Assembly (NCBI GenBank): GCA_945879065.1
Contig: CAMCUU010000004.1
Span: 73 to 64,072 of the forward strand
Source of the DNA: Francisella tularensis subsp. holarctica
Lineage (GTDB): Bacteria > Pseudomonadota > Gammaproteobacteria > Francisellales > CACEW01
Direction: 5' to 3'
Length of the DNA stretch: 64,000 nucleotides
The position numbers and the translations under genes are program-made. A model generated the notes under the pieces. It was not told the DNA's origin. It worked only from the letters and a program-made list of their open reading frames with translations, and did no database searches. Shown piece by piece: positions 18,537 to 19,504 of this stretch (its first letter is position 1; the number at the start of each line of letters is the position of its first letter).

Positions 18537-18974
18537 ATGAGTGCAGAGTTTTTAAACAAAGTTAAACAGTCTGGAAAGTCTTTTTTAATTTTAGGATTAT
18601 TGGGTTTTTCAGTGTCTGTTTTTGCAAACCCAACTCCTCCAGCCGACTTTTCGCAGCTCACGACCAATATTTCAAATTTGGAATTTCAGATTTTAAAAAT
18701 CGTTCAAGTAGTTGTGACGCTGGCGGGTATCTTATTAGCGTTTAGAGGTGTGATTCATTTGAAACAACATGCGCATGGTTCACCTCAAGAAAAACATTTG
18801 CCCAAGGGTATTGCGAATATTGTTTTCGCCGCTTTGTTATTTATGGTCGTGCCTTTGATCCATATGTTTGTGGGTACTTTGAGTCAGGGTGTTGGTGGCA
18901 CTACAAATTACAATAGTTGGGATGCAGGCGACGCGGATAGCGCTGGTAATCTTGCGACGATTTCTGGTGGTTAA
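18537..18974 (+). CDS. IcmD/DotP-like small membrane protein, paralog 1
   Basis: Signal peptide, then TM, 'HLKQHAHGSPQEKH' loop and TM. This resembles the IcmD 'KFKQHKDNPTQ' loop as I recall it. Confidence 0.55.
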   Translation: MSAEFLNKVKQSGKSFLILGLLGFSVSVFANPTPPADFSQLTTNISNLEFQILKIVQVVVTLAGILLAFRGVIHLKQHAHGSPQEKHLPKGIANIVFAALLFMVVPLIHMFVGTLSQGVGGTTNYNSWDAGDADSAGNLATISGG

Positions 18975-19011
18975 TCAGTTTTTATTTTCTTGGCGCGGAT
19001 TTATTTTCGTA

Positions 19012-19027
19012 TGCTAAGATCCGGCGC
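19012..19027 (+). promoter_or_regulatory. Extended -10 promoter-like motif TGcTAAGAT + ccggcgc between the two icmD-like paralogs
   Basis: Exact member of the recurrent motif. TTGGCG lies 19 nt upstream. Confidence 0.45.
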
Positions 19028-19075
19028 TTTTTGTTTTAGTTTTGGTATGAATTGGTAAAGACAGGGGTTTAAATA

Positions 19076-19504
19076 ATGATGAATACAAAGTTTCTAAGGT
19101 TCTCTGGAAAAGCTTTATTGGCCTTAGGGCTTTTAGGCGTGTCAGCCTCTGTTTTTGCCTCACAGCCCAGTGATTTCTCACAATTGACTAAGAATGTATC
19201 AAACTTGGAGCTTTCGATTTTAACGATTGTTCAGGTAGTCGTGACGCTGGCCGGTATTTTACTGGCGTTTAGAGGCGTGATTCATTTGAAACAACATGCG
19301 CATGGTTCACCGCAAGAAAAGCATTTGCCCAAGGGTATTGCGAATATTATTTTCGCGGCTTTGTTATTTATGGTTGTGCCCTTGATTCATATGTTTGTGG
19401 GTACTTTAAGTAATAATGTTGGTGGTGGAAGTTATAATGCCTGGGATGCCAGTGGTGCCGATAATGCTGGTTCGCTTAATAGTGGTGGCGCAACACCTAC
19501 TTAG
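19076..19504 (+). CDS. IcmD/DotP-like small membrane protein, paralog 2
   Basis: Central ~60 aa essentially identical to paralog 1. N- and C-termini diverge. Confidence 0.55.
   Translation: MMNTKFLRFSGKALLALGLLGVSASVFASQPSDFSQLTKNVSNLELSILTIVQVVVTLAGILLAFRGVIHLKQHAHGSPQEKHLPKGIANIIFAALLFMVVPLIHMFVGTLSNNVGGGSYNAWDASGADNAGSLNSGGATPT

Follow-up and report, generated by a model that had tools for sequence, protein, structure and literature searches.

A tandem pair of putative IcmD/DotP-TraR-type hairpin genes at the head of a type IVB secretion locus

The tandem pair

The window analysed here, 64,000 nucleotides (nt) of a contig assigned to Francisella tularensis subsp. holarctica (CAMCUU010000004.1), contains a compact type IVB secretion system (T4BSS) locus, and at the head of that locus lie two small open reading frames (ORFs), head to tail on the + strand, whose products resemble IcmD/DotP of Legionella and Coxiella and TraR of IncI1 plasmids (Table 1). 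The two proteins share 76% amino-acid (aa) identity overall (BLASTP, E 8e-66). A first-pass annotation, made from the letters alone, had described two ORFs of 145 and 142 aa with an essentially identical core of ~60 residues and divergent signal peptides, mature N-termini and tails, and we find just this: the core, IVQVVVTLAGILLAFRGVIHLKQHAHGSPQEKHLPKGIANI(V/I)FAALLFMVVPLIHMFVGTLS, spans 62 aa with a single residue difference (V/I) between copies, while identity falls to 63% in the N-region and 46% in the tails, which are Gly/Asn/Asp/Ser-rich. Its description of the core DNA as near-identical was overstated, since the cores share 91% of their nucleotides, with about 16 differences, 15 of them synonymous, and the longest identical stretch between the copies is about 36 nt. 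Both frames are intact and are preceded by Shine-Dalgarno-like sequences, GGAGG and AGGGG; both copies are real genes, and probably both are functional.

The pair recurs well beyond a single assembly. The window is identical over 6.4 kb to a contig in ENA, a second strain (one ENA and one JGI assembly) has the same tandem with 38 differences in 6.4 kb, and a 645-nt contig from another sample runs from the tail of copy 1 across the spacer into copy 2 with no mismatch. The same tandem stands in the same place in five other, much more diverged metagenomic genomes; one Thiotrichales metagenome-assembled genome has a single copy only. The proposal that copy 2 arose when an assembler expanded a repeat, or that it is a pseudogene, draws some colour from P0006, a 961-bp chimeric contig in which the two copies of another genome meet within the core and which indicates that the core can mislead assemblers or mediate crossover. 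It is nonetheless scarcely credible here, given that the copies differ at 9% of core and about 35-45% of flank positions, that the tandem appears in independent assemblies, in two strains and on the junction-spanning contig, and that five diverged genomes keep the pair with both ORFs intact and a whole-gene omega (dN/dS, the ratio of non-synonymous to synonymous divergence) of 0.12-0.19; the artefact or pseudogene that the first-pass annotation had named as fatal to its reading is thereby ruled out. P0006 itself, an ENA contig related to L010:1484-2437, combines the N-half of that genome's copy 1 (P0009) with the C-half of its copy 2 (P0007), and represents either a single-copy allele produced by unequal crossover or two copies collapsed by the assembler.

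Constraint and exchange in the core

A word-indexed search of 5.8e9 proteins returned 25 close homologues, and the core is nearly invariant in all of them, the single-copy genome included; 39 alignment columns are invariant, almost all in the core. By Nei-Gojobori estimation, omega for the window pair is 0.015 in the core (dN and dS in Table 1), 0.21 in the signal peptide (dN 0.27, dS 1.3) and 0.40 in the tail (dN 0.56, dS 1.4), and in the pairs of other genomes core omega is 0-0.05. Both genes are intact and under purifying selection. Because the core is nearly invariant across the 25 homologues and its omega is so low, we attribute its identity mainly to extreme purifying selection and not to recent homogenisation.

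The first-pass annotation had instead invoked gene conversion. In its strictest form this would have the core made identical solely by recent conversion between free-running duplicates, with core selection unexceptional. There is evidence on that side: core dS in the window pair (0.46) is lower than in its own flanks (1.3 or more) and than in the paralog cores of the other five genomes (0.87-1.27, with dN 0-0.07), both copies share three lineage-specific core residues, and quartet tests, described below, find concerted sites in the core. The family-wide invariance, which extends to the single-copy genome, tells against it, as do orthologous cores that have diverged to dS 0.8-2.7 with dN of only 0.007-0.07, and the 15 synonymous differences and short identical stretches that remain between the window copies. 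Recent conversion as the sole cause is therefore largely refuted, and we regard it as very improbable.

Conversion has a place in the history of the core all the same. We had considered the excess synonymous divergence of the orthologous cores as an anomaly in its own right, but it is largely accounted for by the genome-wide background, as nearby genes show a dS of 0.6-0.75 between L008 and L010, the closest two genomes, and a quartet test was used instead, in which informative nucleotide sites among two genomes and two positions were counted as supporting orthology, within-genome grouping or the third topology. For L008/L010 the flanks gave 39:1:0 and the core 5:6:1 (Fisher p 1.6e-4); for L010/L011 the flanks gave 30:2:4 and the core 4:7:3 (Fisher p 3e-4); and for L006/L012 the core gave 3:10:3, with the within-genome sites clustered at both core ends. 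The history of the core thus differs from that of its flanks. Among codons for the same amino acid in the window pair, 14/59 differ in the core against 21/42 in the flanks (p 0.01). Taken together with the shared core residues, these data indicate that the core exchanged sequence between paralogs after speciation, though not recently in the window genome, where the 15 synonymous differences imply that any conversion is old. What survives of the conversion claim is accordingly a concerted-evolution signal in the core, with family-wide purifying selection as the main cause of its identity. Flank quartets between the window and the L008/L010/L011 clade (6:19:13) do not distinguish the same duplication event from a separate one.

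Diversifying selection on the exposed ends, also proposed at first pass together with dN/dS by region and comparison between strains as checks, finds no support in either check. No region of the window pair exceeds an omega of 1, flank omega ranges from 0.07 to 0.69 across all paralog and ortholog pairs and is never above 1, and the two strains show zero differences in copy 1, copy 2 or the spacer. The tips evolve faster through relaxed constraint, and in the family alignment the tails retain a conserved aromatic motif (YNxW / TTGW) and an A-G motif. Strain differences do occur nearby: 35/38 of those in the 6.4-kb stretch fall in 16533-18473, across a histidine kinase gene and ORF329, in what looks like an inter-strain recombination tract, while the paralogs and dotD-dotC-dotB are identical. 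Compared with L002/L003, 6 codons have changed nonsynonymously and 2 synonymously in codons 1-104 of ORF329, its periplasmic N-terminal part rich in Cys, against 0 and 12 in codons 145-328, its hairpin modules, so that the strain-variable part is the exposed N-domain of ORF329 and not the tips of the small paralogs.

Between the copies, a block of roughly 40 nt (GGCGCGGATTTATTTTCGTATGCTAAGATCCGGCGCTTTTT) is conserved in the window, L008, L010 and L011 despite near-saturated synonymous sites, and within it TGCTAAGAT, 56 nt upstream of the copy 2 ATG, is invariant. The block could be read as TTGGCG, an 18-nt spacer and TGc-TAAGAT, that is, as an extended -10 promoter. The first-pass suggestion that copy 2 has its own promoter-like motif is borne out to this extent, a motif conserved in four genomes, but only as a lineage-specific feature, because the block is absent from L006 and L012, whose spacer measures 22-28 nt; separate transcription of copy 2 would be confined to the lineage that has the block. 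Two other roles were considered and set aside. As a locus-wide regulatory box TGCTAAGAT was dropped for want of enrichment in the window (5 found against 3.4 expected). As an intrinsic terminator, formed by an imperfect GCGCGGAT/ATCCGGCGC repeat and a T-run, the spacer folds no better than shuffled sequences (z -0.7), and the right arm is non-complementary in L008 and L010 while TGCTAAGAT is invariant.

Family placement, partner gene and locus

Gene position, intermediate sequences and profile-profile comparison together place the two copies within the IcmD/DotP-TraR family (Pfam DUF6750, PF20535), in a narrow subfamily that had gone unannotated. An exhaustive profile search of 1.8e9 representative proteins gave only 39 matches at E <= 1e-3. 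One of these, P0050, recovered by the A2 profile at E 4e-5, belongs formally to DUF6750, scoring 38.7 bits where the cutoff is 27; IncI1 TraR falls in the same family (1.2e-47), and TraQ matches it too (6e-9). In a member-wise Pfam scan, 13/44 sequences of our extended-family alignment (A4) matched DUF6750, and aligned by hhalign to a 13-sequence TraR alignment A4 scored 91% (E 1.1e-6), with 94 columns in register from the end of the signal peptide to beyond the second transmembrane helix; against a single TraR sequence it scored 75%. P0050 and P0051 occupy the canonical icmD/traR slot, in the order dotI-dotH-dotG-dotF, a multi-hairpin gene, a gene of about 130 aa and, further on, dotO. Fangia has a two-hairpin protein of 185 aa and a family member of 145 aa directly before dotD, and on a Piscirickettsia plasmid a 335-aa protein and then a 135-aa family member (97%) lie ahead of dotD. 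The copies themselves show the TraR-type architecture, to judge from sequence, charge count, predicted secondary structure and the TraR alignment (a cleavable signal, about 130 aa, two transmembrane helices and a basic loop), and follow directly on a two-hairpin TraQ/IcmC-type gene within a T4BSS locus. The earlier description of them as IcmD-like proteins stands in the form of IcmD/DotP-TraR-like T4BSS components.

Direct searches returned little. Neither copy reaches the 27-bit gathering score of PF20535, with no match at E <= 0.1 for either copy or at E <= 1 for copy 2. Named relatives are confined to Fastidiosibacteraceae/Thiotrichales (Facilibium, Cysteiniphilum, Caedibacter taeniospiralis and Fangia), each annotated as hypothetical. 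The sequence clusters of ten distant matches contained no informative names. A search with the TraR-bridging alignment had IncI TraR as its sole named matches and returned no named IcmD protein, and the annotation of Burkholderia pBVIE03 contains no IcmC or IcmD names. Querying 72,556 plasmids with copy 2 by tblastn gave no match even at E 10, and nothing significant emerged from PDB sequences with phmmer or the family profile. At one further locus (L015:399-1898) a distant member, P0061 (132 aa), has a two-module protein of 182 aa on one side and an ORF of 142 aa on the other, with an ORF of 1283 aa next in line; with no Pfam match recorded anywhere in it, this locus may be a very divergent T4BSS-like system.

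The partner gene, ORF329, encodes a protein whose N-terminus is signal-like and whose periplasmic region is rich in Cys. Two segments of it, aa 120-214 and aa 259-313, are hairpin modules that share homology with the small paralogs. Run against the ORFs of the window, a hidden Markov model (HMM) of A4 found two domains in ORF329 (whole-protein E 2e-10), no other window ORF matching, and the C-terminal module scored 72% in hhalign. By BLASTP, both modules match proteins in the icmC slot of canonical T4BSS loci (E 9e-12 and 3e-8). ORF329 aligns with IncI1 TraQ and with the 185-aa Fangia protein; hhalign of its family against a single TraQ sequence is weak (2.8%). Because of the matches to icmC-slot proteins and its architecture, we assign ORF329 as the putative DotE/IcmC/TraQ-type partner of the copies, themselves of DotP/IcmD/TraR type.

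In other lineages the two protein types are covalently joined: 1, 5 or 10 TraR-like modules are fused to a TraQ/ORF329-like C-terminus in the icmC slot, and a separate small gene follows. P0041 (L020:8001-12245, 1414 aa) contains 10 stretches that match the family profile and P0056 (L021:8001-10037, 678 aa) contains 5, each chain running into the TraQ/ORF329-like C-terminus; both lie in the icmC slot of T4BSS loci, with a separate 132-141-aa gene next. The 335-aa 'hypothetical protein' of the Piscirickettsia salmonis plasmid (L013:10017-11024; NZ_CP038209.1) joins one TraR-like hairpin to a two-module ORF329-like protein. Such fusions are Rosetta-stone evidence that the two types assemble together, and suggest that one-hairpin and two-hairpin proteins sit side by side in the membrane with the tails as periplasmic linkers.

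Downstream of the pair the locus continues with DotD, DotC, DotB, IcmT, DotL, two unassigned ORFs, DotI, IcmS, IcmW (- strand), DotH, DotG, a 325-aa ORF, a 1003-aa ORF of DotO size and DotM, the T4BSS extending to about 37795. The presence of IcmS, IcmW and DotM points to an effector-translocating system of Dot/Icm type. The order of an ORF of ~330 codons, two copies and dotD-dotC-dotB-icmT-dotL is syntenic in the 5 other genomes.

Table 1. Positions in the window of the tandem pair, its parts and the adjoining T4BSS genes
Feature	Position	Strand	Basis and remarks
ORF329, putative DotE/IcmC/TraQ-type protein	17492-18481	+	A4 HMM, BLASTP to icmC-slot proteins, architecture
Copy 1, IcmD/DotP-TraR-like hairpin protein, 145 aa	18537-18974	+	ORF; signal peptide aa 1-30, mature N-terminus 31-54, core 55-116 (transmembrane helix 1, 23-aa basic loop, transmembrane helix 2), tail 117-145
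Copy 1 conserved core, 62 codons	18699-18884	+	91% nt identity to copy 2 core; dN 0.007, dS 0.46
Conserved spacer block	18992-19032	+	Holds TGCTAAGAT (19012-19020); candidate extended -10 promoter for copy 2
Copy 2, IcmD/DotP-TraR-like hairpin protein, 142 aa	19076-19504	+	ORF; signal peptide aa 1-28, mature N-terminus 29-50, core 51-112, tail 113-142
Copy 2 conserved core, 62 codons	19226-19411	+	aa 51-112
DotD/TraH lipoprotein	19570-20073	+	Pfam DotD 4e-24, NCBIfam 1.3e-34
DotC/TraI	20070-20966	+	Pfam T4SS_TraI 2.8e-68
DotB ATPase	21001-22119	+	TIGR02524 1.6e-138
IcmT/TraK, 84 aa	22112-22366	+	PF28014 IcmT_2 on identical contig
DotL/IcmO coupling protein	22406-24703	+	

Three neighbouring features deserve mention. 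A histidine kinase gene (HisKA + HATPase_c; 16321-17358, - strand) divergently adjoins the T4BSS in every related locus, with no response regulator seen beside it, and is a possible dedicated regulator of the system. Just past the T4BSS, an ORF with a Ras/Roc small-GTPase domain (38952-39806, - strand) is a candidate eukaryote-like effector. Upstream, in 9507-13169, a PqqD-like gene (12278-12586) and a transglutaminase-core gene (12636-13169) follow an ORF of ABC-transporter size, an arrangement syntenic in L008 and L011 that resembles a cluster for lasso peptides or other ribosomally synthesized and post-translationally modified peptides.

Membrane array or pilin

The signal peptides of both proteins end in V-F-A, and the alanine before the cut is invariant in the family. 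The mature N-terminus has a net charge of -1, the loop +3 plus 4 His, and the tail -2 or -3, a distribution from which the positive-inside rule predicts that both termini are periplasmic and the loop cytoplasmic. An AlphaFold2 (AF2) model (mean predicted local distance difference test score, pLDDT, 68.5) has a signal-peptide helix, a hairpin (H34-73/H85-116) and a disordered tail, in agreement with the VirB2-type topology noted at first pass. The 23-aa loop, FRGVIHLKQHAHGSPQEKHLPKG, is basic, His-rich and the best-conserved part of the protein, and its conservation suggests a conserved cytoplasmic partner.

We consider the pair likely to represent a lineage-specific tandem duplication of a small inner-membrane hairpin subunit of the T4BSS (of IcmD/DotP or TraR type, and distantly related to VirB2), placed right after a two-hairpin DotE/IcmC/TraQ-type gene. 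Each protein would be exported by Sec and cleaved after V-F-A, as its cleavage site suggests, and would insert, by the positive-inside rule, with both termini in the periplasm and the loop facing the cytoplasm. The hairpins would then pack side by side, with each other and with those of ORF329, as a hetero-oligomeric array in the inner-membrane complex of the T4BSS. Packing and a conserved cytoplasmic partner, for example a DotO/VirB4-like ATPase, may hold the helices and loop invariant, leaving the periplasmic N-termini and tails as loosely constrained spacers, and the identity between copies would be maintained by very strong purifying selection, joined from time to time by gene conversion within the core.

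Several considerations weigh against this interpretation. The window proteins reach no Pfam or NCBIfam threshold; a Foldseek search of the PDB found nothing better than E 0.7 and so offers no structural discrimination. The connection to TraR is a transitive one, through intermediate sequences, or comes from profile-profile comparison, and scores of this kind can be inflated by hydrophobic hairpins. The IcmD label is likewise positional and transitive, drawn from gene position, size, topology and the TraR link, and not direct; and the pair lies outside the canonical icmG-icmC-icmD-icmJ position. Finally, the membrane array is read from gene fusions, and in the loci that carry them a small gene still stands apart, whose product could be a pilin that polymerises.

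That last point leads to the principal rival, in which the copies are true pilins: extracted by the DotO (VirB4-like) ATPase after signal cleavage, they would polymerise into a VirB2-type filament or periplasmic conduit, the hairpin forming its wall and lumen and the variable termini its surface, with the two copies as major and minor subunits or as alternative surface variants. Their topology is the same as that of VirB2 (predicted periplasmic termini and cytoplasmic loop from the charges, and a helical hairpin in the AF2 model), and the fastest-evolving parts are the termini that would be surface-exposed. The commonest weak matches in the member-wise scan of A4 were T4SS_pilin (18/44), DUF6750, TrbC/VirB2 (9/44) and DUF4134 (8/44), although unrelated membrane families also turned up; matches to these three VirB2-type families recur at near full-length coverage, as in P0030 and P0034, whose matches (E 1e-4) cover positions 1-66 and 4-65 of the T4SS_pilin model, which is 71 positions long. 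They stay below threshold: the best T4SS_pilin match among the relatives reaches 22.7 bits against 26.6 in a per-protein scan (best E 2.2e-5 in the member-wise scan), no gathering score of the pilin families (PF04956, PF18895, DUF4134) is attained, and of the window proteins only copy 1 registers, against DUF4134 (E 0.008, 16.8 bits). No solved pilin matched by sequence in the PDB or by fold in Foldseek.

Other features argue against pilins. VirB2 loops are short and lipid-binding, whereas the window loop has 23 aa and is the most conserved part of the protein. A chain of up to 10 hairpins covalently fused ahead of a TraQ-like protein cannot polymerise subunit by subunit. Tip omega lies below 1, and the two strains show no variation there. 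Nor was the link to VirB2 new when the first-pass annotation drew it together with the remark that no T4BSS pilin is established: TraQ and TraR have been described since 2014 as homologues of each other with indirect homology to VirB2, MPF-I (the IncI mating-pair formation type) being said to exhibit 'two VirB2-like pilins' (PMC4027160; repeated in PMC6112013), and a 2025 review lists R64 TraR as the VirB2 equivalent while leaving the Dot/Icm column blank (PMC12624023). The published relation speaks for the pilin rival, and the blank column, which upholds the remark, against it. A pilin-like reading is therefore reasonable and already in the literature; membership of the VirB2 family proper is not demonstrated by these sequence comparisons, and we think it unlikely that the copies are true pilins. 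A hetero-oligomeric array of hairpins remains our favoured reading, with polymerisation into a conduit live but less likely.

A bolder version can be stated, to which we attach a low probability: the copies, and by extension IcmD/DotP, would be the missing VirB2 equivalent of effector-translocating T4BSSs, forming a short conduit polymerised on a DotA/IcmX platform, with the loop lining the lumen and the variable termini facing outward. The duplication would make this a two-component conduit, heteropolymeric or switchable, in which conversion of the core keeps the subunits competent to co-assemble while their exposed ends drift.

The duplication itself is a modest, lineage-restricted event, and the feature is a diverged, duplicated and previously unannotated member of a known pilin-related family, not a new kind of thing. 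It is of interest chiefly for what its pattern of conservation and its fused relatives tell us about the DotP and DotE components, which are still unplaced. IcmD/DotP, IcmC/DotE and DotV are among the last Dot/Icm components without an assigned place or role, and the VirB2 row is blank for Dot/Icm in current reviews. As a natural experiment, with hairpin and cytoplasmic loop frozen in two copies and the periplasmic ends left free, the pair marks functionally constrained surfaces. The subfamily is labelled 'hypothetical' or mislabelled everywhere, so that surveys for T4BSSs in Thiotrichales/Fastidiosibacteraceae-like genomes probably count icmC and icmD as missing.

Among known systems, IncI1 TraR (R64/ColIb-P9; PF20535), with its partner TraQ, is close in design. 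It too measures about 130-145 aa, has a cleavable signal ahead of a mature N-terminus that is short and amphipathic, and contains two hydrophobic helices with a Lys-rich loop between them; its gene comes right after a TraQ-type gene with two hairpins within a T4BSS. The window proteins differ in a longer (23 aa), His-rich and extremely conserved loop and in a Gly/Asn/Asp-rich C-terminal tail, their gene is duplicated and the pair has moved upstream of dotD, and they belong to an effector-translocation system (IcmS, IcmW, DotM) rather than a conjugative one. ORF329 likewise departs from TraQ and the Fangia protein (175-185 aa), which lack both its N-terminal extension (about 110 aa, rich in Cys) and an insert that contains Cys. 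In Legionella and Coxiella, IcmD (DotP), IcmC (DotE) and DotV are small inner-membrane T4BSS proteins of 132, 194 and 180 aa, of unknown function (10.1101/312009). The icmC-then-icmD order there mirrors that of ORF329 and the copies, and in metagenomes the icmD slot is filled by relatives of the window family. An extra paralog exists in Legionella as well: DotV, which is of two-hairpin type and located elsewhere, whereas the window repeats a one-hairpin gene in tandem.

With VirB2/TrbC pilins (PF04956, PF18895, DUF4134) the copies share a signal peptide and a helical hairpin with predicted periplasmic termini and cytoplasmic loop, and their relatives match all three families below threshold; they differ in falling below every family threshold themselves, in their long conserved loop and in having fused multi-hairpin relatives. 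The type IVA secretion systems of Anaplasmataceae contain tandem arrays of VirB2 paralogs. There too, several neighbouring copies of a small hairpin subunit, with conserved hydrophobic and divergent exposed parts, serve an effector-translocating type IV system; the window differs in the class of its system, in having only two copies and in showing no sign of positive selection.

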